A stretch of DNA of 14,909 bases from Armatimonadia bacterium (GTDB taxonomy: Bacteria > Armatimonadota > Zipacnadia > Zipacnadales > UBA11051), in the NCBI GenBank assembly GCA_039683575.1, contig JBDKRC010000099.1, positions 1 to 14,909 of the forward strand, given 5' to 3'. The translations under genes and the position numbers were made by a program. Shown here one piece after another: positions 1 to 14,909 of this stretch (position 1 is the first letter of the stretch; every line of letters starts with the position of its first letter). The notes below the pieces were generated by a model, which had not been told where the DNA came from, did no database searches, and was given only the letters and a program-made list of their open reading frames with translations.

Positions 1-710
1 CCGTCAACGACTACGCCGCCGATGATCCGGCGACGCTCGCCCGCCTGCAATCACTGGCCCGCGAAATGCGCGCGACACTGGTTCTTGGCTGCAAGTCGCA
101 CGTGCCAGAGGGCACTTCCACCGACTGGCTCCGCCGCCGGGCGATGCTGCAGGCCGAGGGGGCGCTGTACTACAACAGCGCGCTCATCATCGGCCCGTCC
201 GGGAACGTCATCGGCCGCTACCACAAGCGCCACCCGATTCAGTTCTTCTCCGACGGCGTGCCTGGGCCGGGATACCCCGTGTTTCCCATGCCTTCGGCGG
301 GGCGCATGGTGTCGCTCGGGGTCGCGATATGCTATGACCTCGACTTCGCGGACACGGCGCTCTCGCTGGCGCGCAACGGGGCTCAGCTACTGGTCGTCCC
401 CACCTACGACGCCCGCGACTGGGGGCCAGTCCAGCAGATGCAGCACGCGCGTCTGGCACTCGCCCGCGCTGCCGAAGTGGGCCGCTGTGTGGTTCGACCT
501 ACCTCCTCGGGGGTTAGCCAGATCATCGCGCCGGGCGGCGAGCAGCTTCGCTTCATTCCCTCCGGCGACGGCGGGCAGATGCTGGGCGTCGTGGAGGCGC
601 GCTCGTACCGCACGCTCTATGTTCGGGGCATGTGGCTACTTCCCTATCTCTGTCTCGGTCTCGCTATCCTGGGATTGCTCTACTGTGGGGTACGCAAACA
701 GAGCCGCTAG
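1..710 (+). CDS. lnt: Apolipoprotein N-acyltransferase (nitrilase/CN-hydrolase fold), 5'-truncated by the window edge
   Basis: The frame of ORF 66..710 stays open back to base 3. It has YYNSA, GRYHKRHP (catalytic Lys), AICYDLDF (catalytic Cys), QH..LA..RAAEVGRCVVRPTSSGVSQII, RTLYVR and a C-terminal transmembrane helix, all typical of Lnt. Confidence 0.85.
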   Translation, partial: VNDYAADDPATLARLQSLAREMRATLVLGCKSHVPEGTSTDWLRRRAMLQAEGALYYNSALIIGPSGNVIGRYHKRHPIQFFSDGVPGPGYPVFPMPSAGRMVSLGVAICYDLDFADTALSLARNGAQLLVVPTYDARDWGPVQQMQHARLALARAAEVGRCVVRPTSSGVSQIIAPGGEQLRFIPSGDGGQMLGVVEARSYRTLYVRGMWLLPYLCLGLAILGLLYCGVRKQSR

Positions 711-3700
711 ACTGTGAGCTGCCCGCCTTCGCCTGCCTCAATTCGCGGCAGCCGCAGACGGAACGTCGCGCCCTGTCCCGGCGCCGATTCGACCTCCATC
801 TTACCTCCCAGGAGCTCTACGCGCTCACGGATGCTGAACAGACCAAAGCTGTCGGGCTTGCCTTGCAGCTTCTCCGGGTCAAAGCCCGCCCCTAGATCAC
901 TGACCGTCAGCGTGGTGTCTCCTCCCGGCTCAACCTGCAGGGTTAGCGCTGCCTGCTTTAGCCCGCTGTGCTTGACGCTGTTGAAGAGCAGCTCACGGGC
1001 GGCATCGAATAGAATGACCTTCACAACCTGCTGCGCGGGTTCGGCGGCGGGGTCAAGCTCAGTCGCCACCGTCAGGCCGTGCTGCGCCCGCATGGTTGTG
1101 ACAAGCCAATCAAGCCCTGCCACCAGCCCGTGGCTGCTCAACACCGGCGGGCTGAGCTGCATCGTCAGGTCCCGCGAGGCGGCAATCGCAGCGACCAGAT
1201 CCTCACGCACCCCACTCAACTGCTCAACGCAATCGGGCATCGCCGTGGCAACAATCCCCAGCTTCAGGCTGGCTGCGGCCAGTAGTTGCTGGAGGTTCTC
1301 GTGCAGCAGTTGCGCCAGGCGCCGCCGCTCGCGCTGTTCACTCTGCGTAAGTTGCAGCGCCAGAGAACGCTGCAGCGTCATGCGGTGCTCCAAGGCCGCC
1401 CGCACCTGCTCCAGATCCGTAATGTCCACGAAGGTGATGACGACGCCCTGGAGTTCGGCGGTCTCGGTCAGGTACGGCTGCGTCCAGTGCAGGTACCGCC
1501 GCCCGTCGCCCGCCGTCACCTGGTGCGACACCGGCTGCCCCGTGTCCAACACGCGCCGCGCCGCGCCCGGCAGGTCCAGCCCCTGTAGCTTCAGCGACAG
1601 GTCCGTGATGGGCCGCTCCAGATCGGTCGGCAGCAAGTTGAAAAGCTCCAGGGCCGGCGGCGTGAACATCTTCAGCCGCAGTTCCTGATCCAGGAAGATC
1701 GTCGGGATGTTCGTGCTGCGCAGCAGATTATCGCGGTCGTCGTTGGCCCGCTCCAGCTGCTCTACTTTCTCAGCCAACTCCGTATTGACCGTCCGCAACT
1801 CCTCATTGAGCGACTGCAGTTCCTCCCGCGAGGTCTCAAGCTCCTCGTTGGCGGCCTGCAACTCCTCGTTCATCGAGGCCATCTCTTCGTTGCTGGCCGT
1901 CAATTCCTCGTTGGAGCTTTCGAGCTGCTCTACCACGCCCTGCATGTCCGCCCGCGCGCCCTCCAGTTCGGCTTCCAACTCGTGCGTCTTCGGTAGATCC
2001 TCCTCGCCAGCCTGAACCTTCACCGTCAGCGGATCGTGCCCGCGCAGCACCAGCAGCAGCAGTTCATCCCGCCGCCCCGCGCGCAACGGTGTCACCTCGA
2101 TCTCAACCGGTTTGCGTCCCTGCGGGGTCGGGACGGTCGTCACCGTCCTGTGCTTCGGCCCCCCGGCCCTTACTCGCCGCATGAGCGACCGCACGGCGGG
2201 CCGCAAGGCCTCGTTCAGGCGCAGAAACAACTGGTCGGTCGGCTCGCCGCGTGGTTGGCGCAGAAACTCCGCCACATTCCCCAGGTAGTAGACAATCCGG
2301 TCCCTGCTATCGACCACCAGCGAGGCCGGGGCGAATTGCTCCAGGACGACTTTCTCCACCAACCGGCTCAGACCCGCGTCTACACCGAACTGTGCCACCC
2401 CCGGCCCGGCCACTGCGGGCCCTCTCCCCGGCTCGACTCGCAGCGGGGGCCGTAGTTCCGGGAGCGCCGTCTGCGGGGTCTCCATCTTCCGGAAGACCCG
2501 GAATTGCTTCGACAGCGTCTCGAAGAGGTGCTGTGGCCCCACCGCCTCCGAGCCGCCGAGAAACAGGTAGCCGCCCGGCTTCAGCGCGAAATGGAAGATC
2601 CGGACGAGCCGATCCTGCGTCTCCGGCTCCAGATAGATCAGCAGGTTGCGGCAGCTCACCAGGTCCAGGTTTGAGAAGGGGGGATCGGACAGCGAGTTCT
2701 GAGGAGCAAACACAATCGCCTTGCGCAGCTTCTGAATAATCCGAAAACCCGTTTCCTCCCCGATGAAGAAGCGCTGCAGATATTCCGGCGGCACCTCCCC
2801 GACGATGTCGAGCGGGAACAGCCCGGCGCGCGCCTGGTTGAGCGCCTCGACGTCAACATCCGTGCCGAATATCTGCAGGTCAATGGGCCGCCCCAGTTCC
2901 TCGCTCACCGCGAAGAACAGCATCGCAACCGTATACGCTTCCTTGCCGTTCGAGCAGCCCGGCACCCACACCCGCAGCGGCGCCTCCGACTGACGCTCCA
3001 CCAGTGGCCGCACCACCTGCTGTTCCAGCATCTTCCAAGCCTCGGGCTCGCGGAAGAACTTGGTGACGCCGATCAGGAAGTCAGCAAATAGCGCCGGAAC
3101 CTCGTCTGGCTTCGTTAGCAGGTACTGCTCATACTCTTTCGTGCTCCGGATGCCGCGGAAACCCATCCGCCGGTTGATGCGGCGCAACAGCATGGACTTG
3201 CGGTAGCCCTGGAAATCGTGGCCGGTGCGGGCGCTGATGATCCCCAGAACCGATCGCAGCAACGCGTCTACGTCCCCCTCGACCTCAAGCTCCGCGGCGG
3301 CCACATAGGGATGCTGCTGGTAGTCCAGTAGTGCCGCCGGTATCTCCTCGACGTTCAGCACCAGGTCGACTACACCGGCCGCTACCGCGTTCCGCGGCAT
3401 CCATTCGTGCTCCGCCTGCTCAGGCGATTGCACGATCGTCAGGCCGCCGTTGGCCTTGATCTCCCGCAGCCCCTCCGTGCCGTCCGAGGCGGTGCCCGAA
3501 AGCACGATCCCCACCGCCCGTTTCTCGCTGGCCGCGGCCAACGAGGTGAAGAACGCGTCAATGGGCAGGCGCAGGGCCCGAGGCTCCTCCGGAGCGCACA
3601 GGTGCAGCGTCTCTTTCTCGACCGTCATTGTCTGCCCGGGGGGGATGAAATGCACGCGATTGGGCTGCAGGGGCATCCCCTCGGTGACTTCCACCACCGG

Positions 3701-3982
3701 CATCGCCGTATGCTGGGCCAGCAGCCAAACCATGAGACTCTCGCGCTCGGGGTCCAGATGCTGGATAACCACAAAGGCCATCCCCGCATCCGCGGGCATG
3801 GCCTGAAAGAACCCTTTGAGCGCGTTCAGCCCCCCCGCCGAAGCGCCGAGGGCTACCGTCAGAAAACCGTCTTCATCGTGTCTGGCAGGCCCCCCCGCCA
3901 CCGGGGGCGAACTGTCGCGATTGCCCTGGGTGACATCTCCGCTCTCAGCGCCTGCTTCCAAAACACCGCTGTCATCCACCAT
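707..3982 (-). CDS. CheB methylesterase / CheR methyltransferase / coiled coil / PAS / HisKA_3-type histidine kinase fusion
   Basis: CheB motifs GASAGG, IQHLDP, LSGTASDG. CheR motifs IGVTKFFRE, RVWVPGCSNGKEAY, GTDVD, DLVSCRNLLIY. Coiled coil EELQAANEELETSREELQSLNEEL. H-box ERRRLAQLLHENLQQLL. HATPase ELLFNSVKHS, VSDLGAGF, FGLFSIRER. ATG at 3982 follows AGGGAGAG; the ORF track start at 4027 is an alternative. Confidence 0.92.
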   Translation of the reverse strand: MVDDSGVLEAGAESGDVTQGNRDSSPPVAGGPARHDEDGFLTVALGASAGGLNALKGFFQAMPADAGMAFVVIQHLDPERESLMVWLLAQHTAMPVVEVTEGMPLQPNRVHFIPPGQTMTVEKETLHLCAPEEPRALRLPIDAFFTSLAAASEKRAVGIVLSGTASDGTEGLREIKANGGLTIVQSPEQAEHEWMPRNAVAAGVVDLVLNVEEIPAALLDYQQHPYVAAAELEVEGDVDALLRSVLGIISARTGHDFQGYRKSMLLRRINRRMGFRGIRSTKEYEQYLLTKPDEVPALFADFLIGVTKFFREPEAWKMLEQQVVRPLVERQSEAPLRVWVPGCSNGKEAYTVAMLFFAVSEELGRPIDLQIFGTDVDVEALNQARAGLFPLDIVGEVPPEYLQRFFIGEETGFRIIQKLRKAIVFAPQNSLSDPPFSNLDLVSCRNLLIYLEPETQDRLVRIFHFALKPGGYLFLGGSEAVGPQHLFETLSKQFRVFRKMETPQTALPELRPPLRVEPGRGPAVAGPGVAQFGVDAGLSRLVEKVVLEQFAPASLVVDSRDRIVYYLGNVAEFLRQPRGEPTDQLFLRLNEALRPAVRSLMRRVRAGGPKHRTVTTVPTPQGRKPVEIEVTPLRAGRRDELLLLVLRGHDPLTVKVQAGEEDLPKTHELEAELEGARADMQGVVEQLESSNEELTASNEEMASMNEELQAANEELETSREELQSLNEELRTVNTELAEKVEQLERANDDRDNLLRSTNIPTIFLDQELRLKMFTPPALELFNLLPTDLERPITDLSLKLQGLDLPGAARRVLDTGQPVSHQVTAGDGRRYLHWTQPYLTETAELQGVVITFVDITDLEQVRAALEHRMTLQRSLALQLTQSEQRERRRLAQLLHENLQQLLAAASLKLGIVATAMPDCVEQLSGVREDLVAAIAASRDLTMQLSPPVLSSHGLVAGLDWLVTTMRAQHGLTVATELDPAAEPAQQVVKVILFDAARELLFNSVKHSGLKQAALTLQVEPGGDTTLTVSDLGAGFDPEKLQGKPDSFGLFSIRERVELLGGKMEVESAPGQGATFRLRLPRIEAGEGGQLTV

Positions 3983-4075
3983 GCTCTCTCCCTGACCCGC
4001 TGACTTCAGTGCGCTCTCATACCACATTCGTTACCTTCGCGACTGCCCCACCGCCCACCTGCCACTGGGCCCACC

Positions 4076-7294: not shown

Positions 7295-8053
7295 ATGAAG
7301 ACTATTGCCGTTGCCAACCAAAAAGGTGGCGTCGGAAAGACCGCCACCGTCGCCAGCCTCGCAGCCGCCCTCGCCGCCACCGGCCAGCGCGTGCTCGTCG
7401 TTGATGGCGACCCACAAGGCAACCTCTCGATGGCTCTCGGCGTCGAAGCCGCGCCCGACGCGCTCACCACCTACGACCTGCTCCTGCAACCCGACGTGGA
7501 GGTCCAGCACTGCCAGATCACCGTGCCGTGGGGCAAGGTGGCCGTCGTCCCCACCGACGTTCGTCTCGCCGCGGCTGAAGTCGAACTCGCGAACGCCGAT
7601 GACCGCCACCTCCGCCTGAAGGCCAAGCTCGGCCACAAGCTCCCGTACGACTTCGTGCTGCTCGATACTCCGCCGAGCCTCGGCTTTCTCACCCTCAACG
7701 CCCTGGCCGCCGCCGACGCCGTGCTGATTCCGGTCCAGTGCTCGTACCTTGCGATGCAGGGCCTGCGCCAACTGCTCGAGACCATCGAGGCCGTCCGCGC
7801 GCACGGCAACCCAGGCCTGCGCATCCTCGGCGTGCTCATGACCATGTACGATCCGCGCACCCTGCACACCCAGCAGGTCGAGGAACTCCTGCGCGAGAAC
7901 TTCGGCGACCTCGTCTTTGACATACCGATCCGCCGGAGCGTCGTGTTCGACTACGCCACCGTCGCCGGCGAGCCCGTCACCGTCCATCGCCCCGAGAGCG
8001 CTGGCGCTGAAGCCTATATGCAGATTGCCCAGGAGGTGCTGGCACGTGCGTAA
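7295..8053 (+). CDS. parA: ParA/Soj-family deviant Walker A ATPase (orphan, no N-terminal HTH)
   Basis: ANQKGGVGKT, VDGDPQGNLS, DFVLLDTPPSLG, LIPVQC, TMYDPRT. RBS GGAGGA at 7285-7290. Confidence 0.95.
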   Translation: MKTIAVANQKGGVGKTATVASLAAALAATGQRVLVVDGDPQGNLSMALGVEAAPDALTTYDLLLQPDVEVQHCQITVPWGKVAVVPTDVRLAAAEVELANADDRHLRLKAKLGHKLPYDFVLLDTPPSLGFLTLNALAAADAVLIPVQCSYLAMQGLRQLLETIEAVRAHGNPGLRILGVLMTMYDPRTLHTQQVEELLRENFGDLVFDIPIRRSVVFDYATVAGEPVTVHRPESAGAEAYMQIAQEVLARA

Positions 8054-8369
8054 GACCCCCCAGATCCCGCGAGATGTATTCTTCGGCGGCTCGACTCCTG
8101 CAGCCCCCGCCGCGGCCCCCGATGAGCCGGTGGTGGCCGGTATCGCGGCACCGCCGCTCGTGCCGGTGGCTCCGGTGGAGGAGGACAAGGTCCAGGTAAC
8201 GGTCTATCTGTCGCCCGCCGCCGCCAAGCGCCTGGAGGCCCTGCGCTTCCACCTGTTCAACGAGCACAACGTCAAAGTCTCCAAGTCGGCCATCGCCGAG
8301 TATGGCATCGCCAACCTAGGCGAGGACCTCGCGCCGATAGCCGAGTATTTCAGAGTGGGGGAGAGGTAG
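8046..8369 (+). CDS. Small ParA-partner protein, predicted ribbon-helix-helix DNA-binding domain (107 aa)
   Basis: GTG at 8046 follows AGGAGG and overlaps the parA stop. Basic N-terminal peptide MRKTPQIPRDVFFGG, Pro/Ala linker, then strand KVQVTVYLS, helix PAAAKRLEALRFHL and helix SKSAIAEYGIANL. Confidence 0.75.
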   Translation: MRKTPQIPRDVFFGGSTPAAPAAAPDEPVVAGIAAPPLVPVAPVEEDKVQVTVYLSPAAAKRLEALRFHLFNEHNVKVSKSAIAEYGIANLGEDLAPIAEYFRVGER

Positions 8370-8375
8370 CGCTTC

Positions 8376-9056
8376 ATGGTGCGTATTCGGGGTTGGATCA
8401 CTGACGCCTGGGACCTGGTCGGCGAGGACTTGCCGGCCTTCTCCATCGCGGCCTTCATCACCATCTCACTTTCGGCCCTCAGCCTGTTCATCCTCGCCTT
8501 GCCGCTGGCCGCCGGCCTCTGCATCATGTTCTCGGAGAAGCTGCAGGGCAACAAGCCGACCGTCAGCCACCTGTGGGAGGGCGTCACCGCCCGTTTCCCC
8601 GCGTCGATTACGGTCTGGATCATCTACCTGGTTGCCAGCCTGCCGGCCTACACCCTCTCGAGTTACCTGCAGTACATACACCGAAGCTGGTGGGCCGTGG
8701 CCATGCTGGCCCTGTCGTCCATGATCATCTGGACCCCGCTGTTCTTCGTCATGCAGCTCATCGCCGACCGCGACCTGAGCGCCCGCGAGGCCATGAAACT
8801 TTCCTGGCTGAGAGTGCGTCCGCATCTGGGAGGCATTTTTGCCTGCGTGGTGGCATATAGCATAGTAATGGTCTTCGGACTGTTCGCCTGCGGTTTCGGC
8901 CTGATCATCACGCTCCCGCTCGTAACCGGCGCGGGGATGCTGGCCTACCGCGACCTGATCGGGGATTATGCTGTGCCGCAGATGATCCCCATCAAGGAAC
9001 CAGAACTGGATGAACAATCTGGATTGCACGAGGGTGATGAAGATGAGGAAGGTTAG
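8376..9056 (+). CDS. Integral membrane protein with acidic C-terminal tail
   Basis: Several hydrophobic segments, GWITDAWDL start, GLFACGFGLIITLP...AYRDL near the end, acidic tail EPELDEQSGLHEGDEDEEG. Starts 6 nt after the upstream stop. Confidence 0.85.
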   Translation: MVRIRGWITDAWDLVGEDLPAFSIAAFITISLSALSLFILALPLAAGLCIMFSEKLQGNKPTVSHLWEGVTARFPASITVWIIYLVASLPAYTLSSYLQYIHRSWWAVAMLALSSMIIWTPLFFVMQLIADRDLSAREAMKLSWLRVRPHLGGIFACVVAYSIVMVFGLFACGFGLIITLPLVTGAGMLAYRDLIGDYAVPQMIPIKEPELDEQSGLHEGDEDEEG

Positions 9057-11441: not shown

Positions 11442-12098
11442 TCAGAGCTCCAACCGGTACCCCACGCCGTGCACCGTCACGATCGTCTCTGCCACCTCCG
11501 GCAGCTTCGTCCGCAGCCGCCGGATGTGCACATCCACCGTTCGCGGACCGCCATAGTAGTCCGGCCCCCAGATCGCGTCGAGGATGTACTGCCGCGTGAG
11601 CACCTGTCCGCTCCGCCGCAGGAGCAGACACAGGAGCTCGTACTCCTTGTACGTCAGCGTCGTCGGCACGCCGTCCACCATCACGCGCAGGTTGGCGAGG
11701 TCTACGACAATTGGCCCCGCGCGCAGTACCCCTTCGGAGTCGATCTGCTCCCGCCGCCACCGCCACAGCGTGACCCGGCCCGCCAGCTCTTCCGGGTCGA
11801 GCGGCAGCGTCAGAAAATCATCACACATGCCTGGCAAGTTGGCCGCGGCCAACTCCCCCCGCACGATCAGCAGGCAGTGCACGGCCTGTAGATGTGGGGG
11901 AATGCGCCGCAGCCGGCCCGATGTTGCAGGGGGGCACTTGTGCAGGAATATGACCTCCGGCCGCGCCGTCGCCTTCAGCTCAACCGCCCGCTCCTCATCC
12001 TTCGCAACGAAGACGTCGCACCCGGCCGCGCGCAGCCCCGGCAGAACCTCTGCCGGAGCAGGCGAGAACAAAATGGCGCGACAAGGCGGGCGCAGCAT
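11442..12098 (-). CDS. OmpR/PhoB-family winged-helix regulator with degenerate receiver domain
   Basis: C-terminal LTYKEYELL...GQVLTR..ILDAIWGPDYYGGPRTVDVHIRRLRTKL...IVTVHGVGY. Receiver remnant DDFLTLPLDPEELAGRV. Confidence 0.9.
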   Translation of the reverse strand: MLRPPCRAILFSPAPAEVLPGLRAAGCDVFVAKDEERAVELKATARPEVIFLHKCPPATSGRLRRIPPHLQAVHCLLIVRGELAAANLPGMCDDFLTLPLDPEELAGRVTLWRWRREQIDSEGVLRAGPIVVDLANLRVMVDGVPTTLTYKEYELLCLLLRRSGQVLTRQYILDAIWGPDYYGGPRTVDVHIRRLRTKLPEVAETIVTVHGVGYRLEL

Positions 12099-13137
12099 GG
12101 CAACTATTCACTAACCTTGTGGGAGGGCTCTCCAGAGCCCGGTGATGAGCCACCGTCCCATGTGCCACCCTCTCCCTCATCAGCAACCGCACATCCTCCG
12201 CCTCCAGCCCCTCCAACACATGGCACAGCAGCTTGCCCGTCTCTGACAGACTCCTCAGACTCAGGTTCCCGGGCAGGTCCTGCGCGGTATGGTACGACGG
12301 ATCAGGCAGCCGCTGCAACCACAGACTCGGCACTCCGGCCCTCGCAAACGCCTCATGATCGCTGTTGGCCCGTCCTCGCCGCGTACGCACGCTCAATCCC
12401 AGCCGCGTGGCGCTGCGGGACACCAGGGCTTCCAGATATGTCTCCTGTTTCCCCCGCCGCCACGCGTACAGACGCTCACCACGTCCCACCATGTCCACCG
12501 AGATCATGCCCACCACCGGCCTCGTTCCCCTCGCCAGCCCGCTTGCCACATAGTGCCGCGACCCAAACTTGCACCCGTAGCGCCGGAACTGCTCTTCGCC
12601 CCCGAAGAACACCACCTCGAGCGTGCAGGGCAGCTTCTTGCGCGCCTGCACCCGGGCCAGCTCCAGCAGCACCCCGACCCCCGAGGCGTTGTCATTCGCC
12701 CCGCGACACCCCGCGCCGCGGCAGCAGTCCATATGCGCCCCCAAGACCACCCGCGGCGCCGCCGGGACGCGCACGAGCCGCCCGATCACGTTGCAGGTAG
12801 TCAGCCCACTCCTCCCCAGCCGCACCCCCTTCTGCACCGTCACCTCATACCCCCAGCCGCGCAGCCGCCCGGCGATCCACCCCGCCGTCCGCCGCTCCGC
12901 CTCGCCGCCACTGGGCCGCGGCCCAACCTCCTCGCAAAGATACCGCACAGCGGCCAGAGCCCGCCCCGCCTCAAAGGCGCTGTGGTCTTCGGAGGGGCCG
13001 AGCTTCAGCCGGCCCGCCGTTATCACCGACCCTCCTCTGCACATCGCCGAGGTGGGGGAGAGGCCTCCCCGCGCCACCCCAAATCCTGCCACGCACAGCC
13101 CAATGATCACTATATGGAAATGGTCCCGCAGTTTCAC
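11995..13137 (-). CDS. Secreted M28-family zinc aminopeptidase
   Basis: GTG start after GGAGG, hydrophobic N-terminus, GPRPSG, LGAHMD, GANDNASG, FFGGEE, SVDMVG, SDHEAF, YHTAQD. The C-terminal ~70 aa run on into the downstream gene. Confidence 0.88.
   Translation of the reverse strand: MKLRDHFHIVIIGLCVAGFGVARGGLSPTSAMCRGGSVITAGRLKLGPSEDHSAFEAGRALAAVRYLCEEVGPRPSGGEAERRTAGWIAGRLRGWGYEVTVQKGVRLGRSGLTTCNVIGRLVRVPAAPRVVLGAHMDCCRGAGCRGANDNASGVGVLLELARVQARKKLPCTLEVVFFGGEEQFRRYGCKFGSRHYVASGLARGTRPVVGMISVDMVGRGERLYAWRRGKQETYLEALVSRSATRLGLSVRTRRGRANSDHEAFARAGVPSLWLQRLPDPSYHTAQDLPGNLSLRSLSETGKLLCHVLEGLEAEDVRLLMRERVAHGTVAHHRALESPPTRLVNSCHAAPALSRHFVLACSGRGSAGAARGRVRRLRCEG
12119..12141 (+). repeat. REP-like element (GTGG + palindrome)
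   Basis: GTGGGA-GGGCTC-TCCA-GAGCCC-G. Confidence 0.6.
12981..13063 (+). repeat. Shorter direct copy of the 9413-9568 repeat block, lying inside the peptidase CDS
   Basis: 12981-13015 matches 9413-9447 at 34/35. CGTTATCACCGACC is shared. 13046-13063 is identical to 9551-9568 (18/18). Confidence 0.85.
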
Positions 13138-13209: not shown

Positions 13210-13293
13210 CATCTACAGGCGCGCCTCTCCGCCTCTACCGTCAACGATCAACCATCAACGCCGGCTTCTCTTACTCGGCACGAATCTTGCAGC

Positions 13294-13821
13294 ATGACCC
13301 TCAAAGTGAAGGCCGAACACGCAAATGCATTCCTGGTTGGCGCCTACGAGGTCCTGCGCCTGCAGCTTGACGCCCGCCCCCTGCGCGGGTCGCCGTTGCT
13401 GCGCAGCGGCAGCGCCACTTCTGCACGCGACCTCGTCGCGCTCATTGCCCTGCGTGGCGATCTCACCGGCGACCTGTTCTACAGCATGTCCCAGGCCACT
13501 GCTACCAAGGTGCAGGAAGTGCTCAACCGCAACTGCCGCGATGAGGCCGGCAGGGGGGACGTGGTGACGCAGCTATCGCGGCTCATGGCCACCAAGGCAG
13601 GCGAACTGCTCGCCGAGCAGGGCCTCACTTGCGAGTTGGCGGAGCCCCGCCTGATTCTCGGCGCCGGCCACACGGTCACCGACCTCGGCCCGGTGCTGAT
13701 CGTGCCCTTCTCCACCGAGTTCGGCGACATAGACATTGGGCTGGCGCTGAGCGACGGCGCGCGCGCCGCCCACGCCCTGACGCTCGACAACTCCGCCGAG
13801 GCCGACGAGGATGCCGCATGA
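13294..13821 (+). CDS. CheX-like protein lacking the catalytic ExxN motif
   Basis: KAEHANAF (cf. xEYINPF), DLVALIALRGDLTGDLFYSMS, CELAEPRLILG (cf. ISPPxLIxG), LIVPFSTEFGDIDIGLAL. The catalytic helix reads VVTQLSRLMATKA. An alternative GTG start lies at 13306. Confidence 0.8.
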   Translation: MTLKVKAEHANAFLVGAYEVLRLQLDARPLRGSPLLRSGSATSARDLVALIALRGDLTGDLFYSMSQATATKVQEVLNRNCRDEAGRGDVVTQLSRLMATKAGELLAEQGLTCELAEPRLILGAGHTVTDLGPVLIVPFSTEFGDIDIGLALSDGARAAHALTLDNSAEADEDAA

Positions 13822-14768
13822 CTGACAGCGCTGCGCCCACCACCACGCTCCGCAAAGCCGCCATCGTCCTGACCACGCTCGGCGAGGACCTCGCCGCGCG
13901 CGTCTGCTGCGATCTGCCTGCCGAGCAGACCCGGCTTCTGCAACAGGAGCTGGCGACCCTCGACCAGGTACCGCCCGAGGAGCACAACGCTGTCCTCGAC
14001 GAGTTCCTCGCCCTCGCCTGGGCCGACCGGAACAAGCCCGCCACCCGCACGCCCGATCCCGCCGCCGAAGACCTGCGCTTTCTCACTCGCCTCAACGACC
14101 TCGAACCGGTGGTGCTCTGGCGGGCCCTGCGTGAGGAGCGCTTGCAGACCGTCGCCGCAGTCCTGAGCCACCTCACGCCGTCGCGCGCGGGGCAGTTGCT
14201 TGCCCACTATGACCAGGACATCGCCGCCGACATCGCCTACCGCGCCGCGCATCTCGGCAGCCCCTCGCCGGGCGCCCTCGAAGCCCTCGGCGGCGCGCTC
14301 AGCCGCGAACTGGGCGGCATTCAGGGCCGTGGCGCGAGCAGCCCCGAGATCTCGCTGCAGTTCGTCGTGGACCTCATCGGCAGCATGCCCACCGATCGGG
14401 GCAAACTCGTCCTCCGCGCCCTGCAAGCCCGCGATCCGGAATTCGGCGATGGCGTGGCCGAACAGGTCTTCACCTTCGAGGACGTCTCCAAGCTCGGGGA
14501 CGACGACCTCCAGCGCGTCCTGCGCACTCTCGACATGAGCATCCTCGTAGTCGCGCTCAAGGGCACGCCGCCGGAACTCAAGGAGCGCTTCAGGCAGAAC
14601 CTCTCCCAGCGTGGGCGCGAACGCCTCGAGGAGGAGATGGACATGCTGGGCCGCGTGCCGCTGTCGCAAGTGCAGGAAGCGCAGAAGCAGGTCTGCCAGG
14701 AGATAAGAAACCTCGCCGAAACCGGCGACATCCGCCTCGACAGCGCCGGCACTCAATACGTCGAATAG
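13818..14768 (+). CDS. fliG: Divergent flagellar motor switch protein FliG paralog (316 aa)
   Basis: ATGA overlap with the upstream gene and RBS GAGGA. LRKAAIVLTTLGED, QTVAAVLSHL, VFTFEDV, LVVALKG, NLSQRG..LEEEM, QVQEAQ, GDIRL. Confidence 0.88.
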   Translation: MTDSAAPTTTLRKAAIVLTTLGEDLAARVCCDLPAEQTRLLQQELATLDQVPPEEHNAVLDEFLALAWADRNKPATRTPDPAAEDLRFLTRLNDLEPVVLWRALREERLQTVAAVLSHLTPSRAGQLLAHYDQDIAADIAYRAAHLGSPSPGALEALGGALSRELGGIQGRGASSPEISLQFVVDLIGSMPTDRGKLVLRALQARDPEFGDGVAEQVFTFEDVSKLGDDDLQRVLRTLDMSILVVALKGTPPELKERFRQNLSQRGRERLEEEMDMLGRVPLSQVQEAQKQVCQEIRNLAETGDIRLDSAGTQYVE

Positions 14769-14783
14769 CCTTCCCACCACCGA

Positions 14784-14802
14784 GTAGGGCGGGCGGCTCG
14801 CC
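14784..14802 (+). repeat. GTAG-type REP-like element
   Basis: GTAG-GGCGGG-CGG-CTCGCC just after fliG. 14783-14797 matches the reverse complement of 11415-11429 at 14/15. Confidence 0.5.
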
Positions 14803-14909
14803 AGTAGTGCCTCACAAAAAACCTAGACACCTTAGCTGGGCCTTTGTGGGCTGCTCCCAGAGCCGTTCGCGCAGTTTTAGCCAGACATTTCTTAGACCGG
14901 TCACGCGGC

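Follow-up and report, generated by a model that had tools for sequence, protein, structure and literature searches.

A sole fliG and a CheX-derived putative pseudo-phosphatase in the switch operon of an Armatimonadia bacterium

We analysed a DNA stretch of 14,909 nt (the window) from an Armatimonadia bacterium with respect to two adjoining genes close to its 3' end, a cheX-like gene (175 aa) and fliG (316 aa). fliG is shown to be the single canonical rotor/switch gene of the one flagellar system of this bacterium. The gene upstream is identified by sequence and fold comparison as an ortholog of CheX, a descendant of the operon phosphatase of phosphorylated CheY (CheY-P), which lacks the catalytic residue pair. 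Taken together, our data make it likely that the sole, ordinary fliG of the genome is accompanied by a CheX-derived pseudo-phosphatase that is kept in the switch operon for a non-catalytic role. The first-pass annotation of this DNA had tentatively read the two genes differently, namely as a stand-alone module of a FliG paralog with a private, FliM-like partner.

The CheX-like protein and its former active site

The CheX-like protein scores 24.1 bits against Pfam CheX (PF13690), under the cut-off of 27, and 29 bits against NF041094 (cut-off 280). Using phmmer, solved CheX chains are matched with E-values from 9e-12 (3hm4, best) to 2e-3. Its AlphaFold model has a predicted local distance difference test (pLDDT) score of 82 and superimposes on T. 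maritima CheX with template modelling (TM) scores of 0.74-0.86 (0.69-0.86 for CheX structures overall). A Foldseek search of the model returned seven solved CheX/CheC-like entries (E 4e-14 to 3e-10, query TM score (TMq) 0.66-0.77). The predicted fold is closer to CheX (TMq 0.69-0.77) than to the FliM middle domain FliM_M (0.47-0.59), with FliY, CheC and the FliM middle domain together at 0.47-0.60, which speaks against the FliM-like character first proposed for the protein. The C-terminal tail (residues 157-175) is acidic and predicted to be disordered (pLDDT <50). A search for homologous proteins yielded P0003 as sole find.

The CheX active-site consensus is given as D/S-x3-E-x2-N-x21-P in excerpts of one publication (PMC12887009). 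In the protein studied here the site reads D89-x3-Q93-x2-R96-x21-P118. D and P are thus kept, but both catalytic residues have been replaced. When aligned to solved CheX chains with HMMER, Q93 and R96 of the QLSR motif fall exactly opposite E and N of ExxN, which confirms the replacement seen in the first-pass annotation.

The loss was traced in the class using a profile of an alignment of CheX-like proteins (A1), which matches in 25 of 79 class genomes. Leaving aside three weak partial matches, 22 CheX sequences were aligned. ExxN is intact in 16 of them (as ELAN, ELGN, EVAN or ELSN) and lost in six. The source genome (G000) has QLSR, G003 has QTAR, G001 neither E nor N, and G004 has ELVR; the remaining two are G043 (ELAQ) and G051 (DLAT). 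In these latter two, the CheX Asn was lost separately two more times. In G051 (L039, G051:C61:74844-78305) the genome shows neither FliG nor CheW matches, while in G043 (L038, G043:C237) the ELAQ variant lies upstream of fliG in a genome still having CheW domains.

A library-wide search recovered 284 relatives, the best 150 of which were aligned with the query; 108 sequences of this alignment carry E..N. The Asn is missing in every one of the 13 nearest cluster representatives (37-87% identity; one per 50%-identity cluster). No conserved replacement is found among them: position 93 is occupied by Q, R, E, H, A, G, D, Y or W and position 96 by R, G, Q, C, T, L or A. Conservation is found elsewhere in this clade. 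In a set of 13 sequences (the query and 12 of the 13 nearest representatives), many positions are invariant or nearly so and unlike the consensus of live CheX, e.g. R37, R45, K72, D145, D147 and G149. Conserved stretches are AEH (7-9), RGSP.LRSG (31-39), S.RELT (43-48), SMS.ATA.KL (64-73) and GD.DIG (144-149).

Constraint was also compared segment by segment. On the active-site helix, four dead sequences have a mean pairwise identity of 0.25 and eight live ones of 0.61, which gives a ratio of 0.41. This ratio is 0.76-0.85 in all other helix or strand segments and 0.50 in the short loop preceding the active-site helix (81-86). The ratio of nonsynonymous to synonymous substitution rates (dN/dS) of the cheX-like gene was determined against L048, a metagenome contig with an 86%-identical copy, and is 0.15 (170 codons, dS 0.51). 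Live cheX pairs of similar distance give 0.14 and 0.04. Near-identical strains from four wastewater metagenome runs were also compared. Among the 33 listed of 83 strain differences, 4/5 in the cheX-like gene are synonymous, the exception being located in the disordered tail, as are 27/28 in fliG. At the sequence level, the dead CheX is hence shown to be retained under purifying selection, with constraint relaxed mainly on the active-site helix. This bears out one expectation of the first-pass annotation: the pair is under selection and is conserved in relatives, as fliG follows in 15 of the 25 class loci.

These findings have to be weighed against the possibility that the gene is a functionless relic, whose reading frame stays open only through high GC content and the translational dependence of fliG. 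The loss of the pathway (see below) would fit such a relic, as would the fast divergence of the protein (27-45% identity within the family, compared to 50-54% for FliG). Moreover, long spurious ORFs (open reading frames) are common at 65% GC, and both the ATGA coupling and the Shine-Dalgarno (SD) sequence of fliG lie inside the 3' end of the gene. A relic would, however, not be expected to show a dN/dS of 0.15, mostly synonymous strain differences or many invariant, clade-specific residues across 13 representatives. Its fold is confidently predicted as well, and relaxation is concentrated on one helix instead of being even. Finally, G001 and G004 do not have the ATGA coupling and yet retain an intact gene. 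We thus regard a relic as unlikely.

Operon context and the chemotaxis pathway

A search with P0001 gave a match in 13 of 41 relatives (the source genome included). fliG lies directly downstream in 10 of the 11 foreign loci found in this way; the eleventh is cut by a contig end. The broader A1 search agrees with this. fliG directly follows the cheX-like gene in the 15 class loci mentioned above, and a contig end truncates one further locus. At the same 25 loci, cheY is found directly upstream of cheX in 12 cases and fliM after fliG in 11. The typical operon is cheY-cheX-fliG-fliM, occurring in several families of the order and often adjoining rpoN; in sister genera, the CheX of this operon has its ExxN intact. 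In family f1, 10 of 15 genomes have FliG, and CheX is present in these 10 and no others; G002, from the same genus as the source genome, is without both.

cheY adjoins none of the six loci with a dead CheX. No CheW-domain match was found in the source genome, in the three further genomes of its genus (g1) or in the single genome of the neighbouring genus g2 (G001-G004; completeness 85-96%). CheC and CheZ were looked for as well and not found. The best tblastn matches to the operon CheY of genus g4 are 27-34% identical, compared to 49-91% for operon orthologs elsewhere. Of the genomes in the aligned set, 15 of 16 with ExxN preserved have a CheW domain, versus one of six in which the motif is lost.

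Independent of this, the window carries a gene on the minus strand (707-4027) for a 1106-aa protein in which CheB methylesterase and CheR methyltransferase are fused to PAS domains and a histidine kinase. Because the genome has no CheW/CheA domain, this fusion presumably does not act on chemoreceptor arrays.

Could the CheX-like protein still be an active phosphatase, using other residues and acting on a receiver that is phosphorylated by a kinase other than CheA? Consistent with this, D89 and P118 of the consensus are kept, the FliM of the genome retains an N-terminus of the CheY-binding type, and several single-domain receivers are encoded in the genome. CheX scaffolds also tolerate some active-site variation, according to excerpts of PMC12887009. 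On the other hand, neither replacement residue (93, 96) is conserved among the 13 nearest representatives, and the CheY-docking helix is the least constrained of all helix or strand segments. Five single-domain receivers of the source genome were checked as CheY substitutes and none of them adjoins motility genes. Retained activity is hence highly improbable, in our view.

The expression signals were compared among the five loci of the dead clade (the source genome, L048, G003, G001 and G004). A motif GGCAC-N5-TTGCA precedes the cheX-like gene in the window. As one match in the window it is not above chance when taken alone (~2.3 expected at <=1 mismatch). GGCAY-N5-TTGCA is located 17-38 nt 5' of the cheX-like start in 5/5 loci, and the intergenic DNA of these loci is otherwise dissimilar, as judged by eye. 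The motif corresponds to the -24/-12 consensus of sigma-54 promoters. Genes for RpoN and a sigma-54 activator are present on the flagellar contig (C44, see below). In five g4 loci, the 200 nt preceding cheY were searched for a motif of this type, and none was found.

In the window, only 2 nt separate the end of the motif from the ATG at 13294, so that the real start is probably the GTG at 13306 (171 aa). The relatives and P0003 begin at the position of V5 as well. At the other end of the gene, the overlap with fliG by ATGA, which the first-pass annotation had reported, is seen at 13818-13821. An SD-like GAGGA (13807-13811) lies 7 nt 5' of the fliG start. The overlap exists in the source genome, L048 and G003, and is not present in G001, G004 or the two g4 loci looked at. 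The idea that a universal ATGA overlap accounts for the "AA" C-termini of many relatives was dropped, as only 3/5 dead-clade loci have the overlap.

fliG, the flagellar gene set and the contig end

All three Pfam domains of FliG score over their cut-offs (FliG_C 121 bits, FliG_M 73 bits, FliG_N 63 bits), and along its length the protein can be aligned with FliG chains of known structure from Salmonella and T. maritima. The FliG_N match is partial, covering positions 4-61 of the 104 in the profile. The protein lacks some 20 residues at the FliG_N end (13998-14060, about residues 61-81) that are present in 8/8 aligned relatives. In comparison to Salmonella FliG, the torque helix conserves ALKG, SQR and an acidic pair (EE for DD), while the last Arg is shifted (GRVP versus GPVR). 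We take the aligned residues to have their usual roles.

The altered EHPQ motif described in the first-pass annotation was found again. When aligned with FliG of Salmonella and T. maritima, the protein has ERLQ opposite EHPQ, with H replaced by R and P by L, whereas E107 and Q110 are retained. Both are invariant in nine Armatimonadia FliGs. The relatives have ELPQ (5), EHPQ (1), ELTQ (1) and ERPQ (1). The second motif position is L in 5, H in 1 and R in 2 of the FliGs; proline is lost in the source genome (L) and in one other (T).

Only one FliG_C (PF01706) match exists in the whole source genome. Likewise, FliG_C is found in 51 of 79 genomes of the class, with exactly one match in each of the 51. 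The remaining flagellar genes are mainly located on contig C44 in the order rpoN, flgB, flgC, fliE, fliF, fliH, fliI, then flhA, then flgF, flgG, flgA, flgH and flgI, followed by flgK, flgL, flagellin, fliD, a sigma-54 activator and, at the extreme end of the contig, fliM. fliH directly follows fliF here, with no fliG in between. The fliM product consists of FliM plus a FliN-type domain, and it retains the GG.G stretch and an N-terminal LITQDELDTLF of the CheY-binding type. Excerpts of PMC6946799 describe the EIDAL motif of the FliM N-terminus as of this type. Genes for MotA and FliN are on contig C239. The canonical fliM expected elsewhere in the genome does exist, whereas no second fliG was found. 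A sole fliG is one of the outcomes that the first-pass annotation had itself named as refuting its reading. A further type III secretion set lies on contig C137 (~61-72 kb). It comprises two SpoA/FliN-type genes as well as genes for an FHIPEP protein and a member of the YscJ family, and has the appearance of an export apparatus that is either non-flagellar (injectisome-type) or a second one.

fliG directly followed by fliM, away from fliF, is also the order in G019, G020, G024 and G067, belonging to two other families of the same order. fliE-fliF-fliG...fliI is kept in G041 and G048, two genomes of other orders. The fliF-fliG-fliH order is typical of the FliG family but not defining. The observation of the first-pass annotation that neither fliF upstream nor fliH downstream accompanies the pair is correct; it does not hold as a sign of a stand-alone unit, because the order-wide fliG-fliM arrangement together with the contig break accounts for the missing neighbours. 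The window is one entire contig (C99) of a draft genome (6.2 Mb, 352 contigs, completeness 96%, contamination 2%), which explains why no gene begins in the 141 bp 3' of fliG.

That this FliG is a paralog serving an alternative or non-flagellar rotor, and that the dead CheX is the private, FliM-like partner of such a paralog, is hardly credible given this genome: although the gene pair lies away from fliF and fliH, EHPQ is altered, FliG stays under the equivalog cut-off of TIGR00207 (172 versus 227 bits) and FliG_N is matched only in part, this is the sole fliG, one FliG per genome is the rule across the class, no fliG separates fliF from fliH, an ordinary fliM lies at the probable continuation, variants of the ELPQ type are the norm in the order and the upstream protein is predicted to have the CheX fold instead of the FliM_M fold.

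The probable continuation deserves a closer look. The final 127 bp of the window, beginning 14 bp after the fliG stop, are a repeat. By blastn, the ends of contigs C101, C40, C80, C303, C90, C2 and C172 match 97-127 bp of it with 97-100% identity. The end of C44 carries a second repeat type, which is present at five other contig ends. Both types have a stretch of 38 bp in common, in inverted orientation and with an imperfect match. fliM starts ~290 bp inside the C44 end and reads away from this end. Of the (short) metagenome contigs, several leave the window at 14774 or 14802, and they do not bridge the join of fliG and fliM. Based on synteny, the simplest reading for the source genome would be an arrangement of fliG, a multi-copy element resembling an insertion sequence (IS) or a miniature inverted-repeat transposable element (MITE), and fliM. 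If so, the element separates fliM from the promoter upstream of the cheX-like gene.

The features of the locus are summarised in Table 1.

Table 1. Features at the cheX-like/fliG locus, with positions in the window.
Feature	Position	Strand	Basis
cheX-derived putative pseudo-phosphatase gene	13294..13821	+	CheX fold (predicted); synteny with catalytic CheX of sister genera; dN/dS 0.15
QLSR, degenerate remnant of catalytic ExxN	13570..13581	+	Aligned to solved CheX chains and to ELAN/ELGN of 16 Armatimonadia orthologs
fliG, sole rotor/switch gene of the genome	13818..14768	+	FliG_N/M/C domains; single FliG_C match
ERLQ, EHPQ variant in the FliG middle domain	14136..14147	+	Alignment to Salmonella, T. 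maritima and Armatimonadia FliGs
Sigma-54-type -24/-12 motif GGCAC-N5-TTGCA	13277..13291	+	Exact match; recurs in 5/5 dead-clade loci
End of multi-copy IS/MITE-like repeat	14783..14909	.	blastn to ends of seven other contigs

Upstream of the pair, both neighbouring genes are on the minus strand and encode an M28 peptidase and an OmpR-type regulator; fliF is not among them. The regulator (11442-12098) has a clear Trans_reg_C domain, while its N-terminal half has no Pfam Response_reg match; its receiver domain may be degenerate. The M28 peptidase ORF (11995-13137) contains in its 5' part a stretch of 45 bp (~12987-13031), for which the summed contig depth in the metagenome runs is 250-515 compared to ~5-8 around it, with many loose ends and joints. 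The true start of this ORF may lie further in, given such a widespread repeat. Two plus-strand ORFs without Pfam match (7917-8369 and 8376-9056) are located 3' of a gene for a ParA-type ATPase (7295-8053). One of them is predicted to encode a multi-pass membrane protein with an acidic tail.

Proposed role and comparison with known systems

The reading we prefer, a CheX-derived pseudo-phosphatase kept beside the only fliG, implies the following course. In the whole order, fliG has left the fliF-fliG-fliH context to adjoin fliM, and the gene upstream of it descends from the operon CheY-P phosphatase CheX. In genera g1 and g2 together, CheA/CheW-type domains and the operon cheY seem to have disappeared and the active-site helix to have degenerated (ExxN to QLSR). 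The dead CheX would still be transcribed with fliG, apparently from a sigma-54 promoter, and be translationally coupled to it by ATGA. The protein is kept by purifying selection, with its clade-specific signature lying outside the old active site. Its present role would be non-catalytic and tied to the flagellar switch, its assembly or its expression, be it by binding, scaffolding or regulation.

Several points weigh against this reading. The link between loss of the pathway and loss of the motif is not absolute: G043 has a dead CheX yet CheW is present, and G022 has an intact CheX and no CheW match. Related genomes are not independent, perhaps only three events underlie the counts, and they should be taken as a pattern and not as a statistic. 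The dN/dS value is derived from one close pair; comparisons of the source genome with G001, G003 and G004 are saturated or uninformative. As FliM keeps its N-terminal motif of the CheY-binding type, some receiver could still pass signals to the motor and serve the CheX-like protein as substrate or partner. In a draft of 352 contigs that is 96% complete, a gene could have been missed; five related genomes are alike in having no CheW. Also, other contigs with a matching repeat end could join fliG instead of C44.

A more specific idea is that the operon CheX was repurposed after the loss of chemotaxis as a non-catalytic subunit or regulator of the switch, i.e. as an accessory of the C-ring, as brake or clutch, or as assembly factor, acting on FliG, FliM or FliN. 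We consider this tentative and rather doubtful. Prediction of a complex of FliG and the CheX-like protein gave an interface score (ipSAE) of 0.00 in two runs without controls and speaks neither for nor against binding. If true, the repurposed CheX would be a present-day case of the route from CheC-fold phosphatases to the FliM middle domain and to inactive FliY.

fliG itself is ordinary; its lesson is that an odd gene neighbourhood together with a contig end can mimic a stand-alone module. The gene upstream of it encodes a member of a diverse CheX clade, which seems to have lost the catalytic Glu and Asn together with CheA, CheW and CheY, yet is linked to fliG, is under selection and has a conserved surface of its own. 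If this clade acts on the motor, it would show a signalling enzyme turning into a motor component, and it would hint at the way in which bacteria swimming without chemotaxis kinases control their flagella. In open-access papers and bioRxiv we found no report of this arrangement or of a catalytically dead, free-standing CheX, nor anything on switch operons of Armatimonadota.

In comparison to canonical FliG (Salmonella 8UMD, T. maritima 1LKV/4FHR, A. aeolicus 3HJL), the FliG described here has the same three domains, the torque-helix residues and the E and Q of EHPQ, and it likewise occurs as a single copy with a full flagellar gene set. It differs by ERLQ, by the ~20 residues missing at the FliG_N end relative to its relatives and by a gene position next to fliM (by the putative join in the source genome) instead of fliF/fliH.

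CheX phosphatases (T. maritima 1XKO/1SQU, B. burgdorferi 3HZH, D. desulfuricans 3HM4, V. vulnificus 6VPW) have the same fold and length as the CheX-like protein and share the consensus D and P. Unlike in those enzymes, E and N are replaced here (Q93, R96) and the active-site helix is unconstrained. Neither CheA/CheW nor an operon cheY is found in the genome, and the disordered acidic tail and the coupling to fliG are further differences.

Proteins of the CheC fold that serve as motor parts without catalysis are described in excerpts of PMC6946799 and PMC12887009, namely the FliM middle domain and the FliY proteins that epsilon-proteobacteria and Leptospira have without a phosphatase active site; CheC-like or CheX-like genes adjoining fliN in Campylobacter count among these precedents as well. 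Like them, the dead CheX is a member of the CheC/CheX/FliY superfamily that lacks catalysis and is encoded among switch genes. The precedents are demonstrated components of the C-ring and are joined to SpoA (FliN-type) domains or work together with these, whereas the dead CheX is a free-standing protein of the CheX type. Moreover, unlike them, it is located upstream of fliG and in a lineage without chemotaxis kinases.

A functional analogy may further exist to motor clutches and brakes, for which EpsE, MotI, YcgR, FlgZ, MotL and FtgA are named in excerpts of PMC11522434. These are small accessory proteins acting on FliG, FliN or MotA, and any resemblance of the dead CheX to them would be one of function without homology.

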